Shown here piece by piece: positions 17,415-43,071 of a stretch of 43,071 nucleotides of DNA (the stretch's first letter is position 1; every line of letters starts with the position of its first letter). Source of the DNA: an uncultured Ectothiorhodospiraceae bacterium (GTDB taxonomy: Bacteria; Pseudomonadota; Gammaproteobacteria; JAABTG01); contig CAYWTP010000002.1 of assembly GCA_964461215.1 (NCBI GenBank), positions 1 through 43,071 of the forward strand, written 5' to 3'. The position numbers and the translations under genes are program-made. The notes under the pieces are model-generated. The model ran no database searches. It was given only the letters and a program-made list of their open reading frames with translations, and was not told the DNA's origin.

Positions 17415-18038
17415 ATGCTGGATTTCTATCTCAACGCCTTTATCCTGCTGTTCGTGGTCCTCGACCCGGTGGGCATGGCGCCCACTTTCGGGGCAATCAC
17501 CCGCGGTAGCTCGGAGCTTCACCGGCGGCCAATGGCGCTGCGGGCGTGCCTGCTGTCCTTCGTGATCCTCGTGCTCTTCGCCGTGGCAGGAAATACGATT
17601 CTGCGGCACCTGGGCATCGGGCTGCCGGCGTTCGGGATCGCCGGCGGTCTGCTGCTGTTCCTGCTTGCCGTCGACATGGTCTTTGCCCGGCAGTCGGGTC
17701 TGCGCTCGACCACCGAGCGTGAGCAGGCCGAGGCCGCGGGCCGGGCCGACGTATCGGTCTTTCCCCTGGCCTTTCCGCTCATTGCCGGTCCGGGGGCCAT
17801 GACGACCGTTCTGCTGCTGGCCGGCAGAGTGCAGGGGCAGCCATGGGCATTCGCCGGGCTGCTGGCCATCCTGGCACTGGAGATTGGACTGGTCCTGGGG
17901 GCTCTGCTGCTGGCAGGCCGGATCACGCGCATCCTGGGAGAGACCGGGGCCAACGTAGTGAGCCGCCTGCTGGGTCTGATCCTGACGGCGCTGGCGGTGC
18001 AGCTCGTGCTGGATGGGATCAAGGCGGCGCTGCTTTGA
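17415..18038 (+). CDS. MarC-family integral membrane protein
   Basis: Trimmed to MLDFYLNAFILLFVVLDPVG (family-typical start). 207 aa. Contains VFPLAFPLIAGPGAMTT. Confidence 0.85.
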   Translation: MLDFYLNAFILLFVVLDPVGMAPTFGAITRGSSELHRRPMALRACLLSFVILVLFAVAGNTILRHLGIGLPAFGIAGGLLLFLLAVDMVFARQSGLRSTTEREQAEAAGRADVSVFPLAFPLIAGPGAMTTVLLLAGRVQGQPWAFAGLLAILALEIGLVLGALLLAGRITRILGETGANVVSRLLGLILTALAVQLVLDGIKAALL

Positions 18039-24652: not shown

Positions 24653-25972
24653 CTAGAGGATCGCGGCGTAGTCCGCCTCGATGCGCTTGAGGTCCAGGTG
24701 GTTGATGAAGTTGGAATACGCCATCCAGCTTGTCAGGGCCGCCAGATCCGCGATCTGCGGCGGCACGAAGCGCGGCGGCTCGACGATGCCTTCGGCCACC
24801 AGGTCGGCCAGGGTGCGGACGTCCTCCAGAGTGGTCTTGCCGCAGAACAGTAGCTGGATCCGGCTGGGCTTGCCGCGGCGCACCGCGAGCTGGATGTAGT
24901 TGTAGATGAGCACGAAGCCCTTGCTGTAGACCAGATCCTTGGTGAACGGGCCGCCCGCCGGCGTGCTGCCGCGAAACACGCGGGCGGCGTTGTTGTAGCT
25001 CTCGACCTCCCCGAAGCCCTGGTCACGGAAGAATTCGAAGACCTGCAGGAAGTCGGCACCGTCCTCGGCCATCTTGACGCCCAGTATGCGGTTGGTCAGG
25101 CGCCTTACCCGGGCCGGGTGGGAGGCGAAGCAGAAGATCTCCATCAGTATGGCCAGCCCTTCCTGGGTCACGGTGGAGGATGGGGGGCCTTTGCTCAGAA
25201 AGGTGCAGGCGGGCTGGCGCAGCCCGTTCAGGGTGGTACCGAGGTGTACCCAGCCTTCGTGGATCTCCAGCATGCGCAGGTCGCGCTGGCTGAAGCGGGC
25301 GTCGCTGCGCAGCTTGATATAATCGGCCCCCGCGGCGGCGTCGGAGACGATGCCGTCGCTGAGCTTGACCTCCACCGGCTGCTCCGCGTCCCGGAAGTAC
25401 TCATTCAGGCGCTGCTGGAGCACCTGTACCGCGTCCCGGGCCTCGATGTCCTTCGGGTCCTGCTCCGCGAGCACATCGCGGTCCACGTTGGTCAGCGTGT
25501 CCGAGAGCAGCGCCGCCATGTCGCCCAGGCTGGGATCGCCGGCATGGAAGGCGTCGCTGGAGCTGCCGTAGAGCTGCTGTGAGATCTTGGAGAACTCGGG
25601 CAGACCTCGGTTCTCGAGCATCCGGACCACGTCGCAGTACTCCCGGCACATGCGCTCCATCATCTTGCCCAACGGATTGAACTGGCCCAGGGTACGCCGC
25701 ACGTCGTGAGCGATGTCCTCGAGCTCCAGGCGCTTCTGAGCCGGCTCGAAGGGCAGGGGGCTGCGGGTGTAATAGTCCCGGTCCACCGGAGGCGGCTCTT
25801 TGAAATTGCTTTCGAAGAAGGCGCCCTGTACGCCGGGGTCCCACTTGATGGAGTCCAGGATGCGGATGGGGCGCTGGGCCTGGACGATGCGATCGGACAG
25901 ACCCTTGATGGTGTTCCTGTACTGCTCTAGGCGGCTGGAGTCGATCACTAGCGTTTCCGGATTCGTGCCCAT
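24653..25972 (-). CDS. DUF1704 / QEGLA-motif protein (MATCAP-like putative metallocarboxypeptidase)
   Basis: 439 aa with the exact QEGLA motif (TVTQEGLAILME) and an HExxH site (LEIHEGWVHLG). Confidence 0.8.
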   Translation of the reverse strand: MGTNPETLVIDSSRLEQYRNTIKGLSDRIVQAQRPIRILDSIKWDPGVQGAFFESNFKEPPPVDRDYYTRSPLPFEPAQKRLELEDIAHDVRRTLGQFNPLGKMMERMCREYCDVVRMLENRGLPEFSKISQQLYGSSSDAFHAGDPSLGDMAALLSDTLTNVDRDVLAEQDPKDIEARDAVQVLQQRLNEYFRDAEQPVEVKLSDGIVSDAAAGADYIKLRSDARFSQRDLRMLEIHEGWVHLGTTLNGLRQPACTFLSKGPPSSTVTQEGLAILMEIFCFASHPARVRRLTNRILGVKMAEDGADFLQVFEFFRDQGFGEVESYNNAARVFRGSTPAGGPFTKDLVYSKGFVLIYNYIQLAVRRGKPSRIQLLFCGKTTLEDVRTLADLVAEGIVEPPRFVPPQIADLAALTSWMAYSNFINHLDLKRIEADYAAIL

Positions 25973-26112
25973 TTTACCGGACGGGGACGGTTTGTGACGC
26001 TAGCATAGGGCAGGCCGAACGCGCCGCAAAGCGGCCCGCCTGCGCTGCATTGACCGCCGCGCCCGCGGTGGCTATCTTGGCCGGGTTCTCCAGCCGCGCG
26101 GATGGCCGGCGC

Positions 26113-27030
26113 ATGTCTGAGTGCTTCGTGATGTTGACGCTTGACGCTTCCAGGCGTCCGGCGGTGGGCGGTAGTCGCACGCGTGCGGCGCGCCTGGCCG
26201 CCGTCATGGCCTGCCTGCTGGTTGCGGGGTGCGCTGCCATGGTGCGCTCCGCCGGCGATCGCCTGGCGGACAACCTGTCCATGGCCATTCTCGATCAGAA
26301 TGATCTGGAGACGGTTCGCGAAGGGGCACCCGCCTATCTGCTGATGCTTGACGCAATGGTGGAGGGGGATCCGGACAATTCTCACCTGCTGCTCTCGGCG
26401 GCCCGGCTGTATGGCGCATACGCGGGCGCCTTCGTGAAGGACAAGGAGCGCGCGCTGCGCCTAGTGGTACGGGGCCGGGAGTACGCGCGCCGCGCCCTTT
26501 GCCTGCGAGACCAGGGCCTGTGCCAGGCCGCGGCCCGGCCGCTGGCGCAGTTCCAGGCGGAGCTGGCGCGGGTACCACCGGGCGAGGTGCCCGTGCTCTT
26601 TGGGTTTGCGGCCGCATGGGCCGGCTGGGTCCAGGCCAGCACGGGCGACTGGCAGGCGGTGGCCGACATACCCAAGATCACGGCGGCGATGCAGCGGGTG
26701 GTTGAGCTGAACGAAGCCTACGACGGGGGCGCCGCCCACCTGTATCTGGGGGTGCTGGCCAGCCAGCTTCCGGCGAACCTGGGCGGCAGGCCCGAGCAGG
26801 CCCGCCGGCACTTCGAGCGGGCCGTTGAGCTGTCGGCGGGCCGGAACCTTATGGTCAAGGTGCTCTACGCCAAGTACTACGCGCGCCTGGTATTCGACAG
26901 GACTTTGCACGATAGACTGGTAAGCGAGGTGCTGACGGCCGACCCGGTGCAGCCGGGGCTCACGCTGATGAACACCCTGGCGCAGCGTGAGGCCAGAGCC
27001 CTGCAGGCGAGCGCCGACAGCTACTTCTAG
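26113..27030 (+). CDS. TRAP-transporter TatT-component family lipoprotein (TPR-like)
   Basis: Lipobox LLVAGC. The body is helical and TPR-like (EGAPAYLLMLDAMV, NEAYDGGAAHLYLGVL...GGRPEQARRHFERAVEL..GRNLMVKVLYA..YA). The start is uncertain (ATG 26113 or 26131). Confidence 0.7.
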   Translation: MSECFVMLTLDASRRPAVGGSRTRAARLAAVMACLLVAGCAAMVRSAGDRLADNLSMAILDQNDLETVREGAPAYLLMLDAMVEGDPDNSHLLLSAARLYGAYAGAFVKDKERALRLVVRGREYARRALCLRDQGLCQAAARPLAQFQAELARVPPGEVPVLFGFAAAWAGWVQASTGDWQAVADIPKITAAMQRVVELNEAYDGGAAHLYLGVLASQLPANLGGRPEQARRHFERAVELSAGRNLMVKVLYAKYYARLVFDRTLHDRLVSEVLTADPVQPGLTLMNTLAQREARALQASADSYF

Positions 27031-27054
27031 CGGCCGTGCCGCAAGGATGGAATC

Positions 27055-28065
27055 ATGTTTCAAAGGATTCTCGCAGCTCTTCTTCTCTTGATTGGCATGC
27101 CTGCGGCCGGTGCGGTGACTCTGAAGATCGCCACCGTGGCGCCGGAGGGCACCACCTGGATGACCGAGATGCGCGCCGGGGCCGGCGAGATTACCAGGCG
27201 CACCGATGGCCGCGTCAGCCTGAAGTTCTATCCGGGCGGCGTCATGGGCAACGACAAGGCGGTGCTGCGCAAGATGCGCGTGGGCCAGCTCCAGGGGGGA
27301 GCTTTCACCGGGGGTGGTCTGGCCGAGATCGATGCGGACACCCAGATCTACAGCCTGCCGTTTCAGTTCAGATCCTACGACGAGGTGGACTACGTGCGCT
27401 CGCGCATGGACGCGATGATCAAACACGGCCTCCAGGCCAAAGGCATGACGGCTCTGGGCATCAGCGAGGGTGGCTTCGCCTACATCATGAGCGATGCGCC
27501 CATACGCCGTATCGCCGATCTCGAAGGCCGCAAGGTGTGGGTACCCGAAGGCGACGACATCGCTTACGCGGTGTTCCAGGTGCTGGGCATCAGCCCCGTG
27601 CCGCTGCCCCTGGCCGACGTCTATACCGGCCTGCAGACGGGCCTGCTGGATACCGTTGCTACGTCCCCCATGGGAGCGATTGCCTTCCAATGGTACACCC
27701 GCGTGCGTTATCTCACCGACGTGCCTCTGGTATACCTGATTGGGATCCTGGCCGTGGACGCCCGTGCCTTCGCGGCGCTGAAGCCGGCCGACCAGGCAGC
27801 GGTGCGCGAGGTCATGGGCGCGGTATTCAGCCGGCTGGACCGGCTCGACCGGCAGGACAACAGTCAGGCCCGTAAGGTTCTGCAGCATGAGGGGATCCGC
27901 TTGGTGATCCCCTCGCCTGCGGAGCTGGCGCGCTGGCACGGCGCTGCCGACGAGGCCCTGATTCGCCTCGGCAAGGACGGCGCGTATTCACCCGCCATGC
28001 TGGCGGTTCTCCAGCGTTGCATCAAGGATTACCGCAGCCGGCCAGACCTTGCTCATGAGCGCTGA
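27055..28065 (+). CDS. TRAP transporter substrate-binding protein (DctP family)
   Basis: 336 aa with a signal peptide (LLLLIGMPAAGA). Contains LKIATVAPEGTTW and LKFYPGGVMGNDKAVLRKMRVGQLQGG. Confidence 0.85.
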   Translation: MFQRILAALLLLIGMPAAGAVTLKIATVAPEGTTWMTEMRAGAGEITRRTDGRVSLKFYPGGVMGNDKAVLRKMRVGQLQGGAFTGGGLAEIDADTQIYSLPFQFRSYDEVDYVRSRMDAMIKHGLQAKGMTALGISEGGFAYIMSDAPIRRIADLEGRKVWVPEGDDIAYAVFQVLGISPVPLPLADVYTGLQTGLLDTVATSPMGAIAFQWYTRVRYLTDVPLVYLIGILAVDARAFAALKPADQAAVREVMGAVFSRLDRLDRQDNSQARKVLQHEGIRLVIPSPAELARWHGAADEALIRLGKDGAYSPAMLAVLQRCIKDYRSRPDLAHER

Positions 28066-30360: not shown

Positions 30361-31068
30361 CTATCGCTCCGGCGCGGCGCCGGCCAAGTCGCGGCGCAGC
30401 TTGCGTATGCCGGCGCCGGGCCCCACGACCACGAGGATGTCTCCGGTGTCGAGCTTGTGGTTGAAGCCCTTGGTGCTGAAGATCACGTCGTCGCCAATCT
30501 CCAGGTCCACCACGCCGAGAACGACCAGGTTGTATTGCTCGCCCAGGTCCACCTCGCGAATATGCCGGCGGTCCAAAAATGAGCTGCGAGGAATCTCGAC
30601 CTGGGCCAGATGCAGATCTGTCCGCCCGAACAGGACATGCTCCAGGATGTCAGCAATCTGCGGATTCTTCAGGATCTGCCATATCTTGCGCGCGCTGATC
30701 TCGTAGGGATCGATGATCTTGTCCGCGCCGGCGGCCTCCAGCTTGGGGATGGCGTCGGGGGTTTCCGCGACGGTGACGATCTTGATGTCGGGAGCCAGAG
30801 CCCGCGCGCTGATGACCATGAAGACGTTCTCGGCGTCATCCGGAAACAACGAGAACAGAGTATCCACGTCCCGGCCTATACCGGCTTTCTGCAGCTCCTC
30901 GTCCACGCGGTAGTCCACCCAGGCCGTCTTCAGGCCTCTGGCCGCCGCCTCGCCAAGGTTCCGCTCATTGCTGTCCATGACCAGAACCTCATAGTCTCGC
31001 GGGTCGAGAAAATTGCTGATCTCCACGGCGAAGCGATAGTAGCCAAACAAGGCGATCTTGCGCTTCAT
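30361..31068 (-). CDS. soluble RCK-domain protein (TrkA-N-like + TrkA-C)
   Basis: 235 aa. The Rossmann-like N-terminus has a degenerate glycine motif (KIALFGYYRFAV). The C-terminal RCK_C block is QVEIP..S....R.I.EVDLGEQYNLVVLGV...GDILVVVG. The start is 4 nt after the channel gene's stop. Confidence 0.8.
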   Translation of the reverse strand: MKRKIALFGYYRFAVEISNFLDPRDYEVLVMDSNERNLGEAAARGLKTAWVDYRVDEELQKAGIGRDVDTLFSLFPDDAENVFMVISARALAPDIKIVTVAETPDAIPKLEAAGADKIIDPYEISARKIWQILKNPQIADILEHVLFGRTDLHLAQVEIPRSSFLDRRHIREVDLGEQYNLVVLGVVDLEIGDDVIFSTKGFNHKLDTGDILVVVGPGAGIRKLRRDLAGAAPER

Positions 31069-31072
31069 CCCC

Positions 31073-32683
31073 TCACGCGGCTCCGGACTTCAAGGTGCTC
31101 TTCTCCATCTCGTCGCGGAAATGGCGCACGCTGTACTCATGGCCGAAGACCACGAGTACGTCGTCGGTCCGGACCACGAATGCGGACGGCGGGTTGAAAT
31201 GGAAGCAGCGGCTGCCCATGGAGAACGAGCCCTCTTCGCGGCCGCCGCTGTCCGCCGCCTCCGAGACAACGCCCAGCAGCACCAGCCGGAACTGGAGGAA
31301 CTTGATCTCCTGCAGCCGCCGGTTCTCCGCGAAGGAGTCGGGCAGCACGCGTATGGTCTCGATTCGAACCCGCCGCTCGCCGCTCAGGATCTGGTAGAGC
31401 ACGTCGAAGGCCACGGGCTGGTGTATATATTCCGCCGCCGCGTGGCCCACGCCTTCGAAGGGAGTGATGACGTGGTTGGCGCCGGCCAGATAGAGCTTCT
31501 TCACGGACTCGCGGCTGTTGGCCCGGGAGATGATCTGAAGCTCCTTGTTCATATGCCGGGTGCTGAGGGTAATGAACACGTTGGTCACATCGTCGCCGGT
31601 GATGCACAGGATGGTCTTCACCCGATCCCGGATCCGCAGGTTCTCAAGCAATGCATTGTCGGCGGCGTTGCCTTGTACCGCCAGGTATCCATCGGAGCGG
31701 GCCCGCTCCGCGGCGTCCGGGTCCTGATCGACGATGACCAGCCGACCCTTTTCCTGGGCAAGCTTTCTGACCACCATCGCCCCGACCCGGCCGTAGCTGC
31801 ATACCACGGTATAGTCGCGGCCGCGCTCAATTTCCGAAAATACCTGGGATTCCTGGAGTCCTCGCAGCTTCTCGGCAAACGCTGAGACGATAATGGACGT
31901 GGAGAAAGAGATCACGCCGATGCCGGAGACGATCAGCACCAGGGTAATGAGTCGGCCCTCGGTGCTGATGGGCACGATGTCACCGTATCCCACGGTCGAG
32001 ATCGTCACCAGGGACCAGTAGACCGCGTCGAAGAAATTGTGGATGTGGGTGCCTTCGCGGCCGCCTTCGAACATGTAGATGGCAGTGCTGGCCGCGAACA
32101 CCACGAAGCCGATGAAGATCCCCAGCGTGTAGAGCTCGAAGCGCTTCTCGGCCAGCACCTTGGCGAATTCGTGGACGCTGCGGGCATAGCGGAACAGCTT
32201 GAACAGGCGGAACAGCAGGAAGATCCGCAGGATTCGGAACGGCCGGTAGCTCGGCAGAATGGCTAGCAGATCGATAATGGCCAGGGGCTGGGTAGCATAC
32301 GCCAGCTTGGAGCTCAGCATCTCCTGCAATGCCAGGCGCAGGCGAAAGCGCGTGTTGAGGAACTCGGCGCGCTCGTAGTGCTCAATAACGATGGCGTGGG
32401 CACTGTTATAGATCCAGGCCCGCAGCAGATACTCCACCACGAAGATCAACGTGGCGGCGACTTCGAACACGTGCAGGGGGTGACCGGGTGGATGCTTGAC
32501 GTCGTGCACCAGCAGCAGCACCGTGGACAGCACCAGGGCAATCATGAATACGTCGAAGTACGGGCGCAGCGGCGACTGGGTGTGTTCCAGCAGGTCGTAA
32601 AAGAATGACTTGGTGCGCCGGTAGCCTTTGGACTCCTCCAGGTAGTAGCAGAAGTGAATGATGCGCTTGGTAAGGACGTCCAT
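31073..32683 (-). CDS. 6-TM voltage-sensor-type K+ channel with a fused C-terminal RCK domain (Kch-like)
   Basis: 536 aa. S4-like helix SYRPFRILRIFLLFRLFKLFRYARS (Arg/Lys mostly at every third position), selectivity filter TVGYGD, then TrkA-N (VVCSYGRVGAMVV) and TrkA-C-like regions. Confidence 0.85.
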   Translation of the reverse strand: MDVLTKRIIHFCYYLEESKGYRRTKSFFYDLLEHTQSPLRPYFDVFMIALVLSTVLLLVHDVKHPPGHPLHVFEVAATLIFVVEYLLRAWIYNSAHAIVIEHYERAEFLNTRFRLRLALQEMLSSKLAYATQPLAIIDLLAILPSYRPFRILRIFLLFRLFKLFRYARSVHEFAKVLAEKRFELYTLGIFIGFVVFAASTAIYMFEGGREGTHIHNFFDAVYWSLVTISTVGYGDIVPISTEGRLITLVLIVSGIGVISFSTSIIVSAFAEKLRGLQESQVFSEIERGRDYTVVCSYGRVGAMVVRKLAQEKGRLVIVDQDPDAAERARSDGYLAVQGNAADNALLENLRIRDRVKTILCITGDDVTNVFITLSTRHMNKELQIISRANSRESVKKLYLAGANHVITPFEGVGHAAAEYIHQPVAFDVLYQILSGERRVRIETIRVLPDSFAENRRLQEIKFLQFRLVLLGVVSEAADSGGREEGSFSMGSRCFHFNPPSAFVVRTDDVLVVFGHEYSVRHFRDEMEKSTLKSGAA

Positions 32684-32896
32684 GGACTCTCACGGCTGTC
32701 GTGTCAAATTCGGCGCCCGCGGGTGTCGCAGGCGCGGCGTTGTTTCCGAAGGCTTTGCACGCGGCACGCCTTGCCAGGGGGCATCGGCTACGATAGCACA
32801 AGACTCTTCGGGCGCCGTAGTGAGCCGCCGAAGACATTTATGGCATGCGCTAGGGTGGCTAGAAGGGGCACATACGTAGGATCTTTAGGCCGTGCC

Positions 32897-32992
32897 GTCC
32901 ATGTGAGGCCCGCAGGACACGCCGTGAACACGTCCGTGTGGGCTCGGTCGCAGCATCCCTGCTGCTCACGGTCCTGCAAACCTCACATGGAC
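32897..32992. other. nested stem-loop element in a long intergenic region (candidate ncRNA or regulatory structure)
   Basis: The outer stem is GTCCATGTGAGG (32897-32908) / CCTCACATGGAC (32981-32992), 12 bp. After a 3x3 internal loop comes GCAGGAC (32912-32918) / GTCCTGC (32971-32977). Then CGTGA (32923-32927) / TCACG (32966-32970). The inner hairpins are ACACG-tc-CGTGT and GCAGCA-tccc-TGCTGC. Confidence 0.35.
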
Positions 32993-33170: not shown

Positions 33171-33662
33171 TCACGAGTCACGCACCCGCCCCGTGGGGAC
33201 CCCCCGTTCGTCGATAATCTCATGCCGCTCCAGCCACTCCCGCGCCTCCGGGGCGTCGGCTTCGAACCACGCCCGGGCCGAGCCCAGGCGGAAGCTGTAG
33301 CCCCAGGCGTCCATGTCCTGGAACATACGCTCCCGGCCCATGGCCGGGAGTGAATCGGCCAGCAGGACCTGGAGGTAGCACACGGCATCCTCCTCTTCGT
33401 AGCCGCCCCCTGCGTCCGTGTGTAGCTGCGCGCGGCGAGCCGCATCCATGCACACGAAATGGCAGGCCTCATGCAGTGCCGAGTGCACGGGGGTATCCGG
33501 CCGCAGATGCAGCGCGTTGCCGACGAGGCCCGCTTCGGAGTCCCCCCAGAAGCTGCCGGGAATGGAGGCGCCCGCGGCCACCGGCACCAAGCAGAGCCCG
33601 AACGGAGCGAGCAGACGGTCGAGGATTCCGGGCTGCAGATCGGCGCACAGCAGAACGCTCAT
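33171..33662 (-). CDS. hypothetical protein with an HExxH motif (163 aa)
   Basis: Trimmed to MSVLLCADLQPG... The ATG overlaps the stop of the upstream GT41 gene (ATGA at 33659-33662). Contains PVHSALHEACHFVCM (HExxH). No family recognised. Confidence 0.55.
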   Translation of the reverse strand: MSVLLCADLQPGILDRLLAPFGLCLVPVAAGASIPGSFWGDSEAGLVGNALHLRPDTPVHSALHEACHFVCMDAARRAQLHTDAGGGYEEEDAVCYLQVLLADSLPAMGRERMFQDMDAWGYSFRLGSARAWFEADAPEAREWLERHEIIDERGVPTGRVRDS

Positions 33663-36127
33663 GGTCCCGCCTGCGGCACGTGGAATGAGGCGGGAGGCTG
33701 CCCCGCCATGTGCCGCTCCCACATCATCCGGTAGGCCTGCTCCAGGTGGCGTACCGTGCGGGCGGTGTCGAATAGCGGGTGGGACAGCCGATTCCGGGCG
33801 AGCCGGGCGCGGACGGATTCGAGCTTCTCGGGATGTGCCGCCAGGGTGAATGCCTGCTCGGCGTAAGACTCCGCAGTGTCCGTGATCAGGTCCGGCAGCC
33901 CCAGCGCGGTGAGGAGGCTCGCGGCGACGCGGCTGGGAGGCCGCTCGCCGGCACAGGTAAGAACGGGAAGCCCCGCCCACAGGGCATCGCAGGCGGTGGT
34001 CATGGCGTTGAAATCGAAGGTGTCCAGAAACAGGTTCGCTAGACTATAGCGGGCCAGATGCTCCTTCTTGCGCGGTAGCCGCTCGGCAAACACCAGGCGC
34101 TGTGGCGCCACGCCGCGGGCTGCCGCCTCGCGGCGCAGATTCGGTGCCGCCTGCCGTCCCCCAACGTTGAGCCACAGGACGCTGCGGGGAAGCCGCCGCA
34201 GCAGATCCATCCACACGCCGAACACCACCGGCTCGATCTTGTAGGCATTGTGAAAGGCGCAGAAGACGAAGCCCTCCGGGGGCAGGCCGAGTTGTCCCCG
34301 AGCGGGAGGCATCTCGTTGATGAGCTGCTGATCATCGTAGATGAAGAAGGTGCCGGGTAGGTACACCAGCTTCTCGCCCCACCGATCCTCGACGCCTACA
34401 GGTGTGGCCACGGCATCGGTGAGGCGATACTGCATGAACTCGGCCCCCATGGTGCCCGGCATCCCCAGATAGCTGACCTGTATCGGGGCGGGCTGCATGG
34501 CCAGGATCTCGGTGCGCGAGAACGTGGTATAGCCGGCGAGATCCACCAGGATCTGGATCCCGTCCGCCCTGATCTGTCGGGCCGCCTCGGCGGCGTCCAG
34601 GTGCTGGAGGTCGCGGAACACGTCGCAGCCCTTCTCGATGTCGCGGCGGTAGCGACTGCCGTCGTCGGGTTGCAGGGAGTAGCCATAGATCTCGAACTGG
34701 GTGCGATCGTGCAGAGCGTACAGTCGGCGCGTGAGCTGCCCGTTGGGGTGCTCCCGGAAATCCGGAGAGATATACCCAATCCGCAGCCAGCCCGCGTCAA
34801 AGTTGGTGTGCAAGAAGGGCAACTCTGCCTCACCCTGTACGCTGGCCTGGACTCCTGCCGAGACAGTGCGCGCCAGCAGCGCCGGCAGCTCGTGAGACAG
34901 GGGCAGGGCCAGGCCGTGGTAGACCAGGGATCGCTCGGAAATGGGACTGCCCTGGCTCGCAGCCTCGCGGATGAACCGCTCCATCGTGTTCAGGTAACGC
35001 TCGCGGTCGCCCCAGTCGCAGCGCAGCAGCCGCTCCCAACCCGCATTCAGGTAGATGGGGCGCGGGTCGGGTGAGCCGGGGCCATAGACGTCGGCGAAGC
35101 CCTGGGGGTCCAGGCCCCGGGCGGCTTCCAAGCCGGCGCGGGACTCCGCTAGGCGGCCCAGGGCAGCCAGGGCGAAGGCGCGCTGCATGGCGGCCCGCGG
35201 ATGGCCAGGGCTCAGTGCCAGCGTCCGCTCGCTTGTTTCGAGCGCTGCCGGAAAGTGGCCTAACGCGAACAGGACCTCGGCCTGCGTGCTGTGTACCTCG
35301 GCCACGTCTGGGCTGATCTCGGCCAGCCGGTGGTCGTTGGCCCGGGCCTCTCCGGAGCGGCCCAGAGCAAGCAGCACCACGCCCCGGCGAAGGAGCGCGC
35401 CGGCATGTCGTGGCTCCAGGTCCAGCACCGCGTCGAAGCCGGCCAGGGCCTCTTCCAGCCGCCCCAAGGCGGTCAGGGCCACGGCGCGGTCGAAGGCGGC
35501 ACCAAGGTTGCGCGGGTCGAGCTTCAAGGCCTCGTCGGCGGCAGCCAGGGCCGGCGCGAAGCGCTTCAGCGCCAGCAGAACCTCGGCTCGATTCAAATGA
35601 GCCGCGGCCATGCCCGGATGGGCGCCGGCCAGGCGGTCGTTGTTGGCCAGTGCCTCCTCCATCCGGCCCAGCTGGGTCAGGACCACGCCGCGATTGAGCA
35701 GCGCGTCCGCAAACCGCGAGTCGTGGGAGAGGGCCGCATCATAGTGCTCCAGGGCTTCCGCCTGACGCTGCAGGTGCTCCAGAACCACGCCGGCGTTGGT
35801 CAGTAGCTGCGGATCAGCGGGACTGAGGGCCAGAGCCTGACGGTAGCCGTCCAGGGCTTCGGCCTGGCGGCCGAGCACGGATAGCATGTTGGCGCGCGCG
35901 CTGTGGGCCTGGACGTTGGAGGGCCCGGCGTCCACTGCACGGCTGAAGGCTTCCAGGGCCTCAGGAAACTTTCCCAGCAGGTGGCGGGCGACGCCCAGCA
36001 GGAACCATGCCCGGGACTCGGCGGGGCTGATCTCGCAGCAGCGCAGCAGCAGCGGCTCCGCGACCACTGCTCTCCCGCTCTCCAGCAATGACCAGGCATA
36101 GTCGATGTCAGTAGTAGGGCGGCTCAT
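33659..36127 (-). CDS. TPR-repeat + GT41 (O-GlcNAc transferase/SPINDLY-like) glycosyltransferase
   Basis: 822 aa with about 10 TPR units in the N-terminal ~370 aa. The OGT-type catalytic region follows (IGYISPDFREHPNG, VDLAGYT, QVSYLGMPGTMGA, FVFCAFHNAYKI, FLDTFDFNAMTTACDALWAGLPVLT). Confidence 0.85.
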   Translation of the reverse strand: MSRPTTDIDYAWSLLESGRAVVAEPLLLRCCEISPAESRAWFLLGVARHLLGKFPEALEAFSRAVDAGPSNVQAHSARANMLSVLGRQAEALDGYRQALALSPADPQLLTNAGVVLEHLQRQAEALEHYDAALSHDSRFADALLNRGVVLTQLGRMEEALANNDRLAGAHPGMAAAHLNRAEVLLALKRFAPALAAADEALKLDPRNLGAAFDRAVALTALGRLEEALAGFDAVLDLEPRHAGALLRRGVVLLALGRSGEARANDHRLAEISPDVAEVHSTQAEVLFALGHFPAALETSERTLALSPGHPRAAMQRAFALAALGRLAESRAGLEAARGLDPQGFADVYGPGSPDPRPIYLNAGWERLLRCDWGDRERYLNTMERFIREAASQGSPISERSLVYHGLALPLSHELPALLARTVSAGVQASVQGEAELPFLHTNFDAGWLRIGYISPDFREHPNGQLTRRLYALHDRTQFEIYGYSLQPDDGSRYRRDIEKGCDVFRDLQHLDAAEAARQIRADGIQILVDLAGYTTFSRTEILAMQPAPIQVSYLGMPGTMGAEFMQYRLTDAVATPVGVEDRWGEKLVYLPGTFFIYDDQQLINEMPPARGQLGLPPEGFVFCAFHNAYKIEPVVFGVWMDLLRRLPRSVLWLNVGGRQAAPNLRREAAARGVAPQRLVFAERLPRKKEHLARYSLANLFLDTFDFNAMTTACDALWAGLPVLTCAGERPPSRVAASLLTALGLPDLITDTAESYAEQAFTLAAHPEKLESVRARLARNRLSHPLFDTARTVRHLEQAYRMMWERHMAGQPPASFHVPQAGP

Positions 36128-36216
36128 GGGGGTGTGGGCGGTCGCAGTGGCTGCAACCTACCGGACGCGGGTAGTGGGAGGCAAGCCGTGGAGGGGCTGA
36201 ACGCCGAACATCGCCA

Positions 36217-38367
36217 TCACCGGACGCTGAATGATGCCGGAGCCAGCCCCGCCGCGTGCCGCTCCCACATGATTCGGTAGGCGGCTTCCATGTAGCGTAC
36301 GGTGCGCTCGGTGTCGAACAGCGGATGGCTCTGCCGGCTTGTGGCGAGCCGATCACGCATCGCTCGCAACCGGTCCGGATGGGTGGCCAGATGCAACGCC
36401 TTCGCCAGATAGGCCTGGGGCGAGTCGGTGACCAGCTCCGGCAGTCCCACCGCGTGCAGCAGGCTGGCGGCAATCCTGCCGGCGGTGGCCTGCCCCAGAA
36501 AGGTCAGCAGCGGCAGGCCGGCCCATAGGGCGTCGCAGGCGGTGGTGTGGGCGTTGTAGATGAAGGTGTCGAGGAACAGATCCGCCAGCCGCTGCCGTGC
36601 CAGGTGATCGGGCAATCCCACCCGGGGGGCAAAGACCAGCCGCCGCGGGTCCACCCCTCGAACAGTCGCCTGGGCGCACAGGTTTCCGCGCGCCTGCGGG
36701 CCGGGATCGAGCAGCCATAGCACGCTGCCGGGCAGGCGCGACAGCAGATCCATCCACACGGCGAAGCCCACCGGCTCCAGCTTGTAGGCGTTGTTGAAGG
36801 CGCAGAACACGAAGCCCTCCTCCGGCAGGCCGTGGGCATGCCGCGGCGGCGTGTCCGGCGCAATGGGCTGGGCGTCGTCGTAGGTGAAATACGTGTGGGG
36901 AAGGAACACCAGCTTCTCCCGCCACCAGCGCTCGCTGCCCGCCGGGGTGACGAGGGCATCGGTGAGCCGGTACTGGACGAAGTCCGCGCCCATGGTCCCT
37001 TGCAGGCCCATGTGGTTCACCTGCACCGGCGCGGGCCGCAGTGCCAGGATCTCGCTATGGGCGAAGCTGGTATAGCCGGCCAGATCTACCAGCACCTGGA
37101 TGCCGTCGGCGTGGATGCGCTGGGCCGCCTCGACAGCCGCCAGCCCGTGCAGCTCACGGAACACGTCACAGCTCTGCTCAATATCCCGCCGCAGGCCGCT
37201 GCCGTCATCCGGGTGCAGGGAGTAACCGACGATGTCGAAGGCCGCGCGGTCGTGCAGGGCATAGACGCGGCGCATGAGTAGCGCGTTGGGATGCGCCGTG
37301 AAATTGGGCGACAGGTAGCCGACGCGCAGCCGTCGCGTCGTGCCAGACCAGCGTGTAAACGGCGCCGCCTCGCGCAACGCCGTCGCCTGCACCGCCCGGG
37401 CAACGCCTGTGGCCAAGCTCAGCCGGGTCGCAGGTGACAGGGGCAGGGAAAGCGACTGGAATACCAGTGCACGCTCTGGAATCGCGCGGCCTGCCGCTGT
37501 GGCCTCGTCCACGTAGCCATCGAGCTCGTCCACATAGCGTTCCCGATCGCTCCAGTCGCAGCGCATCTGCCGCTCCCAGGCCATCTGCAGGTAGATCAGC
37601 CGTGGATCGACGCGCTCGGTCAGCGGCGAGTGCAGTGCCGCGAAGCCCTCCGGGTCCAGTGCCCGGGCGGCCTCGAAGGCGGTCTGAGACTCATCCAATC
37701 GCCCGAGCGCGGCCAAGGCCAGACCGCGGTCAAACGCGGCCTTCAGGTGTCCCGGATGCAGGCTCAGTGCCCGGTCCGCGGCCGCCAGGGCGGGCTCGAA
37801 GCGGTGCAGCGCCAGCAGGACCTCCGCCCGGTTGAAGTGGGCATCGGGAAGGTCCGGGTGAGCGGCCGCGAGGCGGTCGTTGTTGGCCAGGGCCTCCTCC
37901 AGCCGCTCCAGGCGGATCAGGAGCACGCCGCGGTTCATCAGCGCCGGCGCATAGTCGGGCACTTGTCGCAGGGCGGACTCATAGTGCGTCAGGGCCTCGC
38001 CGTCGCTGCCCGTCTGCTCCAGGACGATCGCCAGGTTCACGTGAAGCTGCGCGTCCAGGGGGCTGCGGCGCAGACACTCACGGTAGCCTTCCACGGCCTC
38101 GGCCACCCGCCCAAGCAGGGCCAGCATGTGTGCCCGCGCGCTCAGGGCCTGCGGATGGGACGGGTCGTGGTGGATGCTCTGCTCAAAGGCCGCCAGCGCG
38201 CCCTCGAGCCTGCCCTGTTGGTGGCGGGCGGCACCCAGCAGGAACCAGGCCCAGCCGTCGCCCGGCGACGCTTCGCACCAGCATGCCAGCAAAGACTCCG
38301 CCTGTGCGGCCTCCCCGTTTTGCAGGAGGGACGAAGCGTGCCGGATGTCGTGATCAGCTTCGGGCAC
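36217..38367 (-). CDS. TPR-repeat + GT41 (OGT/SPINDLY-like) glycosyltransferase, tandem paralogue
   Basis: It has the same catalytic blocks (VGYLSPNFTAHPN, VDLAGYT, FVFCAFNNAYKL, FLDTFIYNAHTTACDALWAGLPLLT). I chose the GTG start at 38367 because MPEADHDIRHASSLLQNG then aligns residue-for-residue with MSRPTTDIDYAWSLLESG of the paralogue. An alternative ATG lies at 38499. About 3 fewer TPR units than the paralogue. Confidence 0.75.
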   Translation of the reverse strand: MPEADHDIRHASSLLQNGEAAQAESLLACWCEASPGDGWAWFLLGAARHQQGRLEGALAAFEQSIHHDPSHPQALSARAHMLALLGRVAEAVEGYRECLRRSPLDAQLHVNLAIVLEQTGSDGEALTHYESALRQVPDYAPALMNRGVLLIRLERLEEALANNDRLAAAHPDLPDAHFNRAEVLLALHRFEPALAAADRALSLHPGHLKAAFDRGLALAALGRLDESQTAFEAARALDPEGFAALHSPLTERVDPRLIYLQMAWERQMRCDWSDRERYVDELDGYVDEATAAGRAIPERALVFQSLSLPLSPATRLSLATGVARAVQATALREAAPFTRWSGTTRRLRVGYLSPNFTAHPNALLMRRVYALHDRAAFDIVGYSLHPDDGSGLRRDIEQSCDVFRELHGLAAVEAAQRIHADGIQVLVDLAGYTSFAHSEILALRPAPVQVNHMGLQGTMGADFVQYRLTDALVTPAGSERWWREKLVFLPHTYFTYDDAQPIAPDTPPRHAHGLPEEGFVFCAFNNAYKLEPVGFAVWMDLLSRLPGSVLWLLDPGPQARGNLCAQATVRGVDPRRLVFAPRVGLPDHLARQRLADLFLDTFIYNAHTTACDALWAGLPLLTFLGQATAGRIAASLLHAVGLPELVTDSPQAYLAKALHLATHPDRLRAMRDRLATSRQSHPLFDTERTVRYMEAAYRIMWERHAAGLAPASFSVR

Positions 38368-38630
38368 GGGGTGCTCTATTGACGGTTTCTCCGCCGTGAC
38401 ACGCCACAGGCAGACGCCGGCGCGGTAGGAGGCTGGGAGGGTTGCGCCGGCACAGACATGCGATCCTTCAAGCCGTTGGCGGCCACCATGGCCGGCCATA
38501 CGATGCCCAGCACACTGGAGCGAGGGAGGAGTGCCTCCAGCGCGCGAAGGGGACTTGAAGGGACGAGCCTTTCCGGTCCCCTCGCCGGCAACCGGGTCAA
38601 TAGATGATGCGGCCCGCTGCGAAGATCGGA

Positions 38631-40088
38631 TCAGTTCTTCTGGAAGGCCGCCGTACCCGCCATGTCCCCCCCGGCGCTCGCGGCGTCCAGATTGTTGATC
38701 CGGTAGCCGAGTCCGGCACGGGCGGCGCCTGCGCCGGCGAAGAAGCCGGACATGCTGGCGGAGCAGCTGGAGGCGCAAAGCGAGCCACCGACGGCGCCGC
38801 TGCCCGTGCTGACGCTGAAGGTGGGATCGGTTCCGCCCGCGCTGAAGCCGCTCAGCGATGCCCCGCTGATGCTGACATTGTCCCCGTTCGCAAACTGCCA
38901 GGCCATGTTCAGACTGCCGTTGCCAGAGTCGAAGTTGACCCCCATGTTCCCGGTAATGGTCGCGGTGCCCAGGGTGGCTGCGAGGGTGTCGTCGCCGTAG
39001 ACCGGTGCCGTATACCCCATCAGGGAGTAGGTAGCCGAGCCGTGGGGCAGCTCGGGTGTGGGGATGCCGGCCACGTAGGCCAAGCCGGCGCTGTCGTTGC
39101 TGAACGTGAAGCTGTTCGGCGAGCAGCAGGTAATTACACCGCTCTCGGTAATGGTGGGCGGGTCGACCCAGCGGCCCCAGGTGATGATGTCGTCGCCGCC
39201 GGCCCGCTGCAGCTTGGCGTCGCCGTGATCGGCCATGATGCCGCCCGTGCTCGTGAAGTCGGTGATGGCCCCGTTGGCGTCGAAGTGCGCAGTAACGCCC
39301 TCGCCGCCGTCAATCGTGTACTGACCGGAAATGCCACCTTCGACGCCGTCGGCGTAGGCATAGGTCAGGATGCCGTTGTCCGAGGACATGTCAGGGTGCT
39401 CAGTGCCGAGCTGGACAAGGGTCTGATCCCCGGCCACGAAGGTGGTCTCTTCGGACTGGGTGATGGCCTGGTTGATACCCTCCACATCGATCTCGATGCC
39501 CTGAGCCCGGAGAGTCTGAATCACCGAGTCGAGGTTCTTCACGTAACCCTGGTCGCCGATGTACAGGAGCTGGCAGCCGGCGTTGTTGCAGATCTCCACC
39601 CGGCCGTGACCTACCGTCACCGTCAAGCTGTTGCCCAGCTCGGCCAGGTACTCCGTGCCGCGGATGCCGATGGTGGCTACCGGCGTACGCACCCGGTAGG
39701 CGTTGCGGTGCGCTCTGCCGATGAGGCCGGTGATGGTGCGGAATCCCCCCCGGAGCAGGCTGAAGAAGCTGCGTTCCTTGCCGTCGGACTTGCCTTCGTA
39801 GTTGTACGAGTCGACACGGAACTGGCTGTTGGGCTGCACCGACACCTTGGCGCCGTCACTGAAGCGGAGCTGGGCCAGACCGACGGCGGTCTCGATAGTG
39901 TCGCCGGCAAGCACCGGGGCGCCCTTCGTCAGGGGCCGGCGCTGCCCATCGGCGCCAATGGCGACCACCTTGCCGAAGGCGAAGTCTACGCGGCCGGCCG
40001 CGGCAAAGCCTGTGACCGGCAACGCGGCGGCGATGAGGGCCGCCAGGGCGGCCCGCTTGTTGAGCTTGAACTTGTCGCTGGGAGGCAT
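38631..40088 (-). CDS. secreted FecR-domain protein with a TbpB/fHbp-type C-terminal 8-strand barrel (putative T11SS/Slam cargo)
   Basis: 485 aa. The signal peptide has no lipobox Cys (AALIAAALPVTGFAAAG). FecR-like blocks: GKVVAIGADGQRRPLTKGAPVLAGDTIETAVGLAQLRFSDGAKVSVQPNSQFRV and VRTPVATIGIRGTEY. C-terminal signature: ATYSLMGY..MGVNFDSGNGSLNM..ISGASLSGF..MSGFFAGAGAARAGLGYRI..GTAAFQKN. AAGGAG RBS upstream. Confidence 0.7.
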   Translation of the reverse strand: MPPSDKFKLNKRAALAALIAAALPVTGFAAAGRVDFAFGKVVAIGADGQRRPLTKGAPVLAGDTIETAVGLAQLRFSDGAKVSVQPNSQFRVDSYNYEGKSDGKERSFFSLLRGGFRTITGLIGRAHRNAYRVRTPVATIGIRGTEYLAELGNSLTVTVGHGRVEICNNAGCQLLYIGDQGYVKNLDSVIQTLRAQGIEIDVEGINQAITQSEETTFVAGDQTLVQLGTEHPDMSSDNGILTYAYADGVEGGISGQYTIDGGEGVTAHFDANGAITDFTSTGGIMADHGDAKLQRAGGDDIITWGRWVDPPTITESGVITCCSPNSFTFSNDSAGLAYVAGIPTPELPHGSATYSLMGYTAPVYGDDTLAATLGTATITGNMGVNFDSGNGSLNMAWQFANGDNVSISGASLSGFSAGGTDPTFSVSTGSGAVGGSLCASSCSASMSGFFAGAGAARAGLGYRINNLDAASAGGDMAGTAAFQKN

Positions 40089-40107
40089 GCTCGCTACTCC
40101 TTGCCGG

Positions 40108-41463
40108 TTATTGGAAGTCGCGGCGTAAGGTGACGTAGACCATGGTGCGGTTGTAGTCGCTGACCGAAACGTTGGAGTTGTTCCGCGAGTAGCTGATCTG
40201 CGGCGTCACACTCCAGCCCCGGGCCGGCACATAGCGTACCCCTGCCCTCAAATCGTAGTAGTTGTCGCGTCGAGAGACCAGAAACAGCGGCGTGGTGCCG
40301 TCGTAGTTGCGGTGCTCGGCGCTGGCCGCGCCGAAGATCAAAGTCTTGGCGTTCGCCCTGGCCTGGGCGCCCAGCCGCAGCCCGTACAGCTTGTTGCTCA
40401 GATAATCGACACCCGAGGCCAGCGCGTTCTCCTTGCCCACGTAGGCGCCTGCGTAGACCACCGGCGCCCAGTCACCACCCAGCGCCCGGGCATAGGCCGC
40501 GCCGGCCACATACCGGTTGGCGTTCCTCTGGTCGTTGGCGGGCGAGGTGTCCGTATTGGCATAGTCGAGCCGGGTGATCTGGGCGTAGGCGCTTACCTGG
40601 TTGTTGCGGTCCAGGTTGCGCTGCCATTGGCCTACCAGTGCGTACGCGTCCCGATAGGTGTTGCGATCCAGGGTAAACCGCTCTCCCTGCAGGCCTACGG
40701 TATAGGTGTCCTCACCCTGGCTCAGGGCCAGCGCGACGTCGGCGTTGACGCCGCCGGTGTCGAATCGAGAGTTGTCGCCCGCGTTCCAGCGCTGATTCAC
40801 GGCGCCGTTGGCGAGCAGGGTCAGTCGGTCGGACAGGGCGTGCTTGACGCTGGCGCCGGCCGTCACGCGGCCGAAGTTGGCGCTGCTCTTTCTGGCCGTC
40901 GCGTCGAGGGTGGCGGTGAAGGCACCAAAGGGCGTGGACAGAGCGACCGCACGCTCGGAGGTGGCGCTGTTGACGTTGCTGTCGTGCCCCAGGGTCAGGG
41001 ACAGGTAGCCCGTTACCTTGGTGGTTTCCGGCGTCTGAATTCTCTGGATGGCGTCCAAATAACGCTGGATGGTCGCCTGGGCGGCAGGTGGCGGACCTTC
41101 CTTCCTGACCGCTTCCAGCTCTCGCTTGGACCGGTCCAGCTCCCGCAACTCGAAGTAGGCCCGGCCAAGCTCGGCTCTGGCCTGGGCGTGATTGGGGTTG
41201 ACCGCCAGCACCCGCTCCAGGGCGAACACCGCCTCGGCCGGCTGGCCGCTGTCGAGGGCTGCGATGCCGAGGAGGTAGTCGTAGTCAGGATTACCCGCCC
41301 TTTCCGATTCATGGGGGGCGAGCAGCGCGTAGGCGCTCTTGGCATCACCGCTGGTCATCAGACTGTTGGCCTGGTCCAGCAGGTCGTCTGCGGAGGCCAG
41401 ACCCGGAAGAGCCACCAGCAACAGCGCTACGAGCGCCGACCGAAACAGAGCTGAGCTTCGCAT
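40108..41463 (-). CDS. Slam-like (DUF560) outer-membrane protein: TPR N-domain + beta-barrel (type XI secretion translocon candidate)
   Basis: 451 aa. Signal peptide LVALPGLASA|DD. TPR-like region: YDYLLGIAALDSGQPAEAVFALERVLAVNPNHAQARAELGRAYFEL. Then a long alternating-strand region (GYLSLTLGHDSNVNSA ...) ending MVYVTLRRDFQ. Confidence 0.75.
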   Translation of the reverse strand: MRSSALFRSALVALLLVALPGLASADDLLDQANSLMTSGDAKSAYALLAPHESERAGNPDYDYLLGIAALDSGQPAEAVFALERVLAVNPNHAQARAELGRAYFELRELDRSKRELEAVRKEGPPPAAQATIQRYLDAIQRIQTPETTKVTGYLSLTLGHDSNVNSATSERAVALSTPFGAFTATLDATARKSSANFGRVTAGASVKHALSDRLTLLANGAVNQRWNAGDNSRFDTGGVNADVALALSQGEDTYTVGLQGERFTLDRNTYRDAYALVGQWQRNLDRNNQVSAYAQITRLDYANTDTSPANDQRNANRYVAGAAYARALGGDWAPVVYAGAYVGKENALASGVDYLSNKLYGLRLGAQARANAKTLIFGAASAEHRNYDGTTPLFLVSRRDNYYDLRAGVRYVPARGWSVTPQISYSRNNSNVSVSDYNRTMVYVTLRRDFQ

Positions 41464-41704: not shown

Positions 41705-43071
41705 TTAATCCGCCGCGGCGACCTGCGCCGTGGTGTCCTGCGCCGCTCGTTCCGGCGGTGGTGTGGATGCCTGCGCGCCCGTTCCTGATCCCGTGGTGAT
41801 GGGCTCCATTCCTGACGGATTGGTGAATTGGTCGTTCAAGGTCTGGACATAGCGATCGGCGTCGGTGAGCACCCGGGTGATGCGTTTGCGCGCGATGCGG
41901 CCCCAGCCCACCGGAGCGGTGAAGAAGACCGAATGCAGCGGCCGGGTGTTCTTGCGGAAGGCATGCACCAAGGCCTCTCGGGTGTGATCGTGGTGGATGT
42001 CCTTGCCCAGCCGTCTGGCGATGCCGGTGGCGGCGATCCGGCGTACCGAGTAGTGCAGATAGCCGGCTCCTACCACCACGGCGGCCAGCAGCGCACCCAG
42101 GCCCAGGGTGCCCCAGGTGCCGATCTGCTGCAGCCACGGCGGGGCGAAGTGCAGGCCCTGCCAGTAGCCGGCGTGGATGCTCCACGCCAGCAGGGCCACC
42201 AGTATCAGGCCGAAGACGATGCCGTCACCCCACAGCACTCGGCGCTTCCAGCGTTCCTTGGCCGCCCGCAGGCGAGGAACCAGGTCATTCTCGATGTTCT
42301 TGGCGGTCTTCTCCAGCACCCCGATGATGCGATACGCGCGCTCCACCTCGACCTGCTGCATGCGGCCGTGGATCTCGGACAGATCGGCGTCACGCTTGGC
42401 CTCGAAGCGGGCGCGGCGGGTGGGATCCTCGATGGGGATCGCGGCCTCCGGACTGTAGATGCGGTAGAAGCGCCCGGCCGTGAGCCCCTTCTGCGCCAGT
42501 GCGCGCTGCCAGGCGGCAAACACCTCCTCGGGGTTGTCCTCCCGGGCGGTGGCGTCGATCTGATTCAGGATATACAGAAACTTGTTGGAATCCGGTCGCC
42601 GGATGGTGTCGGCCACCAGGTGCTGCAAGGTGTCGTGCATGGCTCCCGGCTCCGGGTGGCGCGCGTCGAAGAACACCAGCACCAAGTCCGACAAATCGAT
42701 GATATGGTCGGTGATCCGCAGCGTCGAGGTGCGCTGGGCATCGGCGTCGAAGCCCGGGGAGTCGATGATGATCTTGGCCTTGAGCTGGCTGCCGGGGCAG
42801 GTCTTGAGCTGCAGGTATGCGTCGACCCGGCGGCCTTCGCCGGATGCCACCGCTTCGATGTCGGCGCTGATCTGGTAGAAGGGAAACCGGGGATCGGCAT
42901 CCAGGGCCAGACCGGGCAGGGTCCGCGGCGTGGCGTCACTGCTGAAGCAGATCACCGTGAACTTGTCGTCCACCGCCTGGTTGCCAGTGGACTGCAAGGG
43001 CTGGCCCAGGTAATGGTTGATGAAGGTCGATTTGCCAGAGGAGAAGGTGCCAAGTACCGAGATCAGCGGCC
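41705..43071 (-). CDS. membrane-anchored dynamin-family GTPase (N-terminus lies beyond the window end)
   Basis: The reading frame stays open to the window edge. My own translation there is ..PLISVLGTFSSGKSTFINHYLGQPLQSTGNQ (P-loop GxxxxGKS). Also IIIDSPGF (G3) and LNQID (G4-like). A hydrophobic hairpin follows (GIVFGLILVALLAWSI ... TLGLGALLAAVVVGAGYL), then a low-complexity tail. Confidence 0.75.
   Translation of the reverse strand, partial: PLISVLGTFSSGKSTFINHYLGQPLQSTGNQAVDDKFTVICFSSDATPRTLPGLALDADPRFPFYQISADIEAVASGEGRRVDAYLQLKTCPGSQLKAKIIIDSPGFDADAQRTSTLRITDHIIDLSDLVLVFFDARHPEPGAMHDTLQHLVADTIRRPDSNKFLYILNQIDATAREDNPEEVFAAWQRALAQKGLTAGRFYRIYSPEAAIPIEDPTRRARFEAKRDADLSEIHGRMQQVEVERAYRIIGVLEKTAKNIENDLVPRLRAAKERWKRRVLWGDGIVFGLILVALLAWSIHAGYWQGLHFAPPWLQQIGTWGTLGLGALLAAVVVGAGYLHYSVRRIAATGIARRLGKDIHHDHTREALVHAFRKNTRPLHSVFFTAPVGWGRIARKRITRVLTDADRYVQTLNDQFTNPSGMEPITTGSGTGAQASTPPPERAAQDTTAQVAAAD

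Follow-up and report, generated by a model that had tools for sequence, protein, structure and literature searches.

A conserved gene module in Beta- and Gammaproteobacteria linking a Slam-type protein, a predicted FecR-domain cargo and OGT-type GT41 proteins

Here we describe a gene cluster on a 43,071-nucleotide stretch of DNA from an uncultured Ectothiorhodospiraceae bacterium (contig CAYWTP010000002.1; the whole stretch is referred to here as the window), in which a gene for a Slam protein of the type 11 secretion system (T11SS) is followed by a gene for a probable Slam cargo and by two genes for glycosyltransferase family 41 (GT41) proteins with tetratricopeptide repeats (TPRs), GT41-A and GT41-B. 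The order Slam-cargo-GT41 is highly conserved in Beta- and Gammaproteobacteria; it is direction-specific, and in most cases the genes lie as close together as in an operon. Our preferred reading, to which we assign a probability of roughly 0.55, is that positions 33659-41463 hold a conserved system of Slam, probable cargo and OGT-type GT41 enzymes in which the GT41s O-glycosylate the cargo before export. The analysis establishes the identities of the genes, the predicted fold of the cargo, the conservation of the active sites and the gene order with its tandem duplications; the acceptor, the O-linkage, the sugar and the timing of its attachment are inferred.

In the proposed mechanism, the TPR superhelix of the GT41s would bind the unfolded cargo precursor in the cytoplasm, ahead of Sec export, and the enzymes would attach a small O-linked sugar to serine or threonine residues of the cargo. 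The modified chain would then pass the inner membrane via Sec, and Slam would recognise the C-terminal barrel of the cargo and deliver the protein to the cell surface or the medium. Glycosylation of the cargo by the GT41s is put forward here as a candidate function only.

Results

Conservation of the gene order in relatives was a check that the initial annotation of this DNA had proposed, and the order was found to recur widely. A scan of one genome per species of the Genome Taxonomy Database with an alignment of the cargo yielded 77 loci, which were searched by tblastn with the proteins of the window. The loci come from Gallionella, Sideroxyarcus, Nitrosomonadales, Rhodocyclaceae, Azospira, Propionivibrio, "Candidatus Desulfobacillus," Burkholderiales, methylotrophs, Woeseiaceae and other Gammaproteobacteria. 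One of them (L020) is from the cultured Azospira oryzae DSM 21223 (NZ_SHKM01000002.1), with the cargo gene at about 89.5-90.8 kb and GT41 at about 90.8-93.0 kb. In 66 of 72 loci, the cargo gene is preceded by a Slam barrel that ends within 400 nt of it. Of 55 loci with enough sequence, 38 have a co-directional GT41 catalytic domain that starts within 6 kb downstream of the cargo gene, compared with 2 of 40 loci that have a GT41 within the same distance upstream. Outside the module windows of these loci, GT41 domains occur at a background of 2 per 673 kb, so that about 0.01 co-directional GT41 would be expected per locus in a 6-kb window. In 27 loci, the catalytic domain starts 518 to 927 nt past the cargo stop codon, a distance that equals the length of the TPR part; in 25 loci, the bounds on the cargo-GT41 gap have medians of 32 and 64 nt, and among the called genes of Sideroxyarcus it is 33 nt.

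Several relatives carry the unit in more than one copy. The order Slam-cargo-GT41 is present twice in tandem in one locus (L054, 9070-20426), and another (L046, 2051-15643) has the order Slam-cargo-GT41-cargo-GT41-cargo-ligase-cargo. With one Slam, four cargo and two GT41 genes, the latter arrangement suggests that GT41 is tied to the cargo gene and not to Slam. Repeats of the module or of the cargo-GT41 pair were also seen in L048, L058 and L063. Together with the wide range of cargo lengths among relatives (about 450, 730 and 1277 amino acids), the tandem repeats point to an expanding paralogous family.

Approached from the enzyme side, the best GT41-A homologues in a large protein collection belong to the same taxa as the cargo matches. 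Four GT41-A homologue contexts were examined, and the contigs of the two best homologues end just upstream of the gene. In Denitratisoma (L166), the gene order is decarboxylase, Slam, a 730-residue FecR cargo, GT41, a small FecR protein and folA. A metagenome-assembled genome (L168, 343-13863) has the order Slam, a 1277-residue FecR cargo, CapK-like, GNAT, CapK-like, GT41, GT41 and CapK_C, and here a GT41 tandem pair stands behind Slam and the FecR cargo, as it does in the window. Among 80 sampled metagenomic GT41 loci, six have a FecR cargo gene directly upstream of GT41, and all six are among the better matches.

The first gene of the cluster encodes, as judged from its sequence, a Slam/T11SS outer-membrane protein with a predicted role in secretion. 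The protein matches PF04575 (SlipAM/DUF560) over residues 154-450, corresponding to profile positions 5-288 of 288 (E = 6.9e-10; 39.4 bits against a cutoff of 22), and this barrel is preceded by a TPR region (TPR_19, residues 69-131, E = 1.7e-12) and an N-terminal sequence, MRSSALFRSALVALLLVALPGLASA, that was judged by eye to be a signal peptide. A DUF560 barrel above the gathering score, a signal peptide, periplasmic TPRs and an adjoining gene for a barrel-bearing cargo, the features by which T11SS outer-membrane proteins are identified, are thus all found.

The protein encoded next to it had been called a cargo in the initial annotation, and its predicted TbpB/HphA-like fold supports this call. 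Among Pfam families, the sequence matches only FecR (PF04773; residues 63-165, E = 5e-13). In an AlphaFold2 model with a mean predicted local distance difference test (pLDDT) score of 75.4, both domains reach 80 to 95 and the C-terminal half is all-beta, with nine strands between residues 335 and 485 (pLDDT 80-95). When the model was compared with the PDB by Foldseek, the N-terminal domain matched FecR/PupR-type anti-sigma domains (4m0h and 6ovk), and the C-terminal part matched TbpB, the TbpB C-lobe, HphA (8glo), fHbp and the NHBA barrel with E values of 9e-6 to 5e-4 (TbpB, 9e-6; HphA, 1.7e-5; NHBA barrel, target TM score of 0.64). TbpB, HphA, fHbp and NHBA are known Slam-dependent proteins. 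Weak matches to PF01298 (TbpB_B_D) in 4 of 25 cargo relatives (best E = 0.016) represent the sole recurrent second family. The protein begins with a Sec-like signal, MPPSDKFKLNKRAALAALIAAALPVTGFAAAG, in which neither a Cys lipobox nor a twin-arginine motif was seen by eye, and since a lipobox is lacking, the cargo would fall into the soluble class, like hemophilin. On the strength of the structural model, the product of 38631-40088 is probably a non-lipidated, Sec-exported Slam cargo.

The cargo has 579 homologues of similar length, the best of which is about 40% identical. When 25 homologues were aligned, the FecR domain and the C-terminal region proved to be conserved, the latter with the motifs DGIIGWGRW, HYVVGxPT, GxATYSLxG, CxxxC and GFFAGxNAARAGLxY; the linker is variable and mostly rich in Pro, Ser and Thr. 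Ser, Thr and Gly make up 30.7% of the window's cargo, compared with 15 to 21% of the four neighbouring proteins, which bears out its earlier description as rich in these residues.

A separate likeness was noted at the N terminus. Residues ~38-97 of the cargo (39798-39977, minus strand), which form its first beta-strands, resemble the N-terminal "retention/anchoring" module of LapA/MpIBP-type RTX adhesins (NF033682, E = 6e-7; PDB entry 5ix9 by sequence, E = 0.0019; by Foldseek, a root mean square deviation of 0.9 Å over 61 residues at 31% identity). Speculatively, such a module could plug the periplasmic side and so tether the non-lipidated cargo in the Slam pore.

Several points weigh against glycosylation of the cargo by the adjacent enzymes. 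We know of no established precedent for OGT-type enzymes acting on exported bacterial proteins. About 30% of the loci (17/55) are without a GT41 within 6 kb, and GT41 is therefore not obligatory in cis. In the window, the cargo-GT41 gap of 263 nt exceeds the gaps of relatives, which are usually 3 to 170 nt. A comparison of cargo proteins from loci with and without GT41, by alignment column as well as by region, revealed no Ser/Thr column that separates the two groups; the linker shows a marginal Ser/Thr enrichment (P = 0.045, uncorrected, from sequences that are not phylogenetically independent), and the linker of the window's cargo is without the Pro/Thr-rich character of most homologues. Finally, a neighbour-joining tree places the module GT41s in two or three mostly pure clades and not in one. 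The clades hold 25/0 and 22/1 module/non-module members, a suggestive but not a decisive split, and some "non-module" sequences simply come from truncated contigs, such as L099.

It is conceivable, though on balance unlikely, that the GT41s are true members of the module that act on another acceptor, be it Slam itself, another envelope protein or a cytoplasmic regulator. Synteny alone cannot identify an acceptor, Slam is also exported by Sec, the cargo showed no Ser/Thr site that separates loci with and without GT41, and 17 of 55 loci keep Slam and cargo without an adjacent GT41. Against this stands the position of the enzyme gene, which always lies behind the cargo gene and not behind Slam; in L046, it is the cargo-GT41 pair that is repeated and not the Slam gene.

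GT41-A and GT41-B match PF13844 with E values of 1e-91 and 2e-96, respectively (308 and 324 bits; cutoff of 25), are without signal peptides, and carry multiple TPR families N-terminal to the catalytic domain, with about seven TPRs in GT41-A. The two proteins are 54% identical, with the TPR part of GT41-B longer by about 100 residues; the GTG start of GT41-A agrees with the N termini of GT41-B and of homologues. The closest PDB sequences to GT41-B are human OGT (E = 5e-111), SPINDLY (7e-74) and XcOGT (1e-69). By sequence, both are TPR-bearing proteins of the OGT type, not of the HMW1C type, with predicted transfer activity. For a view of the active site, 49 module GT41s were aligned with the catalytic lobes of human OGT, in which K842 is the catalytic lysine and H558, R904, T921 and T922 contact the nucleotide phosphates. 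K842 is kept in 48 of the 49, H558, R904 and T922 in 47 each, and T921 in 45, and the position of D925 is occupied by Asp or Glu in 48, while that of H498 is replaced in most. Equivalents of H558, K842, H901, R904, H920, T921, T922 and D925 are all present in GT41-A. GT41-B keeps the catalytic Lys and the residues that bind uridine diphosphate (UDP) but has Met at the position of H920, where GT41-A has His; with this exchange and the extra TPR residues, the two enzymes may differ in donor or acceptor preference.

This pattern bears on a second alternative, namely, that the GT41s serve mainly as non-enzymatic partners in the cytoplasm, as chaperones or targeting factors with TPRs that bind the unfolded cargo, and that transfer is secondary or lost. 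TPR arrays are classic peptide-binding scaffolds, and both the Met in GT41-B and the replacement of H498 in most members would fit such a role. However, the retention of K842 and of the phosphate contacts, together with a complete catalytic domain that is 37 to 53% identical across distant taxa, suggests enzymes under selection and not degenerate scaffolds, and we consider a chaperone role improbable.

The initial annotation had pointed to HMW1C, a GT41 member, and to three N-X-S/T sequons in the C-terminal part of the cargo, an analogy that, taken literally, would have the GT41 pair add hexoses to Asn. The sequons are there (NDS331, NGS390 and NVS404); yet 3.45 are expected from composition, and only 1, 2 and 6 of 58 family members, respectively, retain them, so that, being at chance level and unconserved, they carry no signal. 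In addition, the equivalog model for N-glycosyltransferases (NF049992) gave 18.6 and 29.2 bits for the two GT41s against a cutoff of 1000, over the last ~90 residues only, and the N terminus consists of TPRs. With OGT, SPINDLY and XcOGT as the nearest sequences, the analogy does not hold, and N-glycosylation of this kind is effectively excluded.

Chance adjacency, in which TPR-GT41 genes, common as they are, happen to lie beside an independent Slam-cargo pair and are transcribed separately, can likewise be effectively excluded: the 263-nt gap does leave room for a promoter, and 74 of the 80 sampled metagenomic GT41 loci are without cargo, but the downstream bias and the background frequency given above, the lack of any other GT41 gene in the window and the tandem duplication of the whole unit in other genomes all argue against it. 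Within the 263-nt spacer, neither a sigma-70-like promoter nor an intrinsic terminator was found, and there was no match to an Rfam family; its folding z-score is -1.97. Were an in-frame ATG at 38499 the start of GT41-A, the spacer would shrink to 131 nt.

The features of the cluster are listed in Table 1. According to the open reading frame list, the five genes are consecutive on the minus strand, and the opposite strand has no gene of comparable support. The Slam stop codon (40108) is 19 nt from the cargo start (40088), the cargo stop codon (38631) 263 nt from the GTG of GT41-A (38367), and the GT41-A stop codon (36217) 89 nt from the GT41-B start (36127), while the sequence ATGA at 33659-33662 joins the GT41-B stop codon to the start of a gene for a small HExxH protein. 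This layout, with its coordinates and spacings, is exactly as first annotated. The 43-kb window holds no GT41, Slam or FecR gene besides those of the cluster. What does change is the extent of the proposed secretion-plus-glycosylation module, as its Slam-cargo-GT41 core of three stands, but not the inclusion of all five genes.

Table 1. Positions of the genes and subfeatures of the cluster in the window
Feature	Position (nt)	Strand	Size or residues	Remarks
Slam	40108-41463	minus	451 aa	
Candidate cargo	38631-40088	minus	485 aa	
FecR-like domain of cargo	39504-40001	minus	aa ~30-195	
Disordered linker of cargo		minus	aa 196-232	
Beta "pedestal" and C-terminal barrel of cargo	38634-39392	minus	aa ~233-485	
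Cargo/GT41-A spacer	38368-38630	minus	263 nt	hairpin at ~38510-38545 without U-tract
GT41-A	36217-38367	minus	716 aa	GTG start
GT41-B	33659-36127	minus	822 aa	
HExxH protein	33171-33662	minus	163 aa	

The HExxH gene was considered as a module member and rejected. No tblastn match to it was obtained in any of the 77 cargo loci, and we therefore regard it as a flanking gene; its more than 8000 homologues (~165 residues, 60 to 72% identity) are found in unrelated, housekeeping-type neighbourhoods. The gene may be co-transcribed with the module, yet without being functionally tied to it. No match to the protein was found among Pfam, NCBIfam or PDB sequences. H64, E65, H68, C71, E90, E91 and C95 are invariant in the family, and the motif lies in a helix formed by residues 59-71. 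A confident AlphaFold2 model (pLDDT 91.9; predicted TM score, 0.89) had no matching fold in the PDB by Foldseek, the best hit having an E value of 0.8 and a faint resemblance to the ArdC/PprI zincins. The protein looks like an uncharacterised small putative metalloprotein of a very widespread family.

In relatives, genes for other cytoplasmic enzymes accompany the module in the slot behind the cargo gene. Adenylate-forming ligases of the CapK/PaaK type follow the cargo gene in 13 loci, and a GT4 glycosyltransferase on the opposite strand is part of the neighbourhood in 9. Accessory enzymes were recorded in L168, which also has a GNAT acetyltransferase, L083 (10596-13332), L081 (10437-16418), L046, L051, L063 and L071, and in some loci without GT41 the ligase lies immediately 3' of the cargo gene. 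The presence of ligases, GT4 and GNAT proteins suggests a modification more elaborate than a single sugar.

Small stand-alone FecR genes (182 to 236 codons), of which the window has none, lie beside folA a few kilobases downstream of the module in L081 (17665-18213), L166 (7306-8016), L002 (~16010-16492) and L011 (~18028-18519), and their products are about 55 to 57% identical to the N-terminal domain of the cargo. Many Betaproteobacteria have the module flanked by dcd and an ornithine/lysine decarboxylase gene on one side and by folA/thyA on the other (L024, L047, L011, L081 and L166). T11SS genes were found to co-occur with nucleotide-synthesis and one-carbon genes (PMC12282271), and in view of the conserved dcd/folA/thyA position, this co-occurrence might partly reflect chromosomal position and not function.

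The surroundings of the module in the window (24653-25999, minus; 25909-28065, plus; 30361-32683, minus; 41705-43069, minus) include a homologue of the MATCAP family (PF08014, E = 1e-131), the tripartite ATP-independent periplasmic (TRAP) transporter genes TAtT and DctP, a TrkA-N/C protein and a voltage-gated-type ion channel that carries TrkA-N. A co-directional open reading frame of 430+ codons, which lies upstream of Slam and runs past the end of the window, has no Pfam match but shows dynamin-like GTPase motifs by eye. None of these MATCAP, TRAP, ion channel and upstream genes was seen to recur in the related loci. Between the HExxH and ion channel genes, a match to the Yersinia small RNA Ysr224 (32877-32972, plus strand) stayed below the Rfam threshold (32.8 bits against a gathering score of 70; E = 1.8e-4) and is probably due to chance.

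Discussion

The cluster described here resembles hemophilin-type T11SS, namely, Hpl/HphA with its Slam and HrpB-HrpC of Xenorhabdus, in that a protein with TPRs and a DUF560 barrel is encoded directly upstream of its cargo, and the cargo shares with hemophilin a Sec signal, the lack of a lipid anchor and a predicted eight-stranded C-terminal barrel behind a beta "pedestal." It differs in three respects: the cargo has a FecR-like N-terminal effector domain, a gene for a cytoplasmic glycosyltransferase is part of the conserved unit, and the hosts are environmental Beta- and Gammaproteobacteria and not animal-associated bacteria. About ten cargo architectures have been predicted for T11SS, and a FecR effector is not among them (PMC12282271).

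The gene logic, in which a glycosyltransferase is encoded beside a Sec-dependent exoprotein and its transporter, is that of HMW1C-HMW1-HMW1B of Haemophilus influenzae, EtpC/EtpA, TibC/TibA and AAH/AIDA-I. In type 5 secretion, Sec substrates are glycosylated in the cytoplasm, HMW1 by HMW1C and autotransporters by TibC or AAH. Small glycans are added before export in these systems, and we propose the same order of events for the T11SS cargo. However, HMW1C has an all-alpha N-terminal domain and adds an N-linked hexose at N-X-S/T, whereas the enzymes of the window are TPR-bearing and of the OGT type, and the secretion route here is T11SS and not T5SS. In architecture, a TPR part followed by a GT41 domain of the GT-B fold, they match XcOGT of Xanthomonas (2jlb/2vsy), TtOGT of Thermobaculum (5djs) and eukaryotic OGT/SPINDLY, with which they also share the catalytic Lys and the UDP-phosphate contacts. 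OGT transfers N-acetylglucosamine and SPINDLY fucose to Ser/Thr. While the known targets of OGT and SPINDLY are nucleocytoplasmic, the gene context here points to one adjacent, exported candidate substrate. Bacterial OGT homologues are abundant and have been used as structural models, but to our knowledge no natural substrate has been identified for any of them.

The FecR fold of the cargo N-terminal domain (PF04773; 4m0h and 6ovk) is common to the FecR/PupR anti-sigma factors. An assignment of the cargo to this class was considered and rejected, as the FecR domain stands alone, directly after the signal peptide. Since this domain follows a cleavable signal peptide, the cargo has neither a cytoplasmic anti-sigma domain nor a transmembrane helix, and unlike in FecR/PupR proteins, its FecR domain is fused to a Slam-type barrel. 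Moreover, no match to an extracytoplasmic function (ECF) sigma or sigma-70 family was found among the module genes and the flanking genes examined.

The module appears to be undescribed, as a search of the open-access literature found no report that links Slam or T11SS with GT41 or with a FecR cargo. Neither FecR-domain cargo nor GT41 is mentioned in the text of two T11SS survey papers, and in the accessible part of a T11SS co-occurrence table, PF13844 is absent and FecR stands solely among regulatory elements, together with sigma-70 domains. A 2025 T11SS paper raises glycosylation as a possibility, stating that "other T11SS-dependent cargo ... may also be glycosylated" (PMC12282271).

Taken together, we tentatively propose, at somewhat short of an even chance, that the module represents an unrecognised, widespread three-gene system in which an OGT-type enzyme O-glycosylates a FecR surface protein exported by Sec and T11SS, with CapK-like, GNAT and GT4 proteins joining in some lineages. 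If this is true, bacterial OGT homologues would gain their first natural substrate class and type 11 secretion its first glycosylation-coupled system, and a cargo that joins a FecR effector domain to a Slam barrel would be a new architecture. Because a conserved candidate substrate is encoded next to the enzyme, the question of what bacterial OGT homologues modify can be put to a direct test by cloning two or three genes. The synteny described here is the first genomic evidence that T11SS cargo may undergo enzymatic modification before export, and it extends the reach of T11SS past animal-associated bacteria, for instance, to the iron-oxidising, denitrifying and wastewater Betaproteobacteria.

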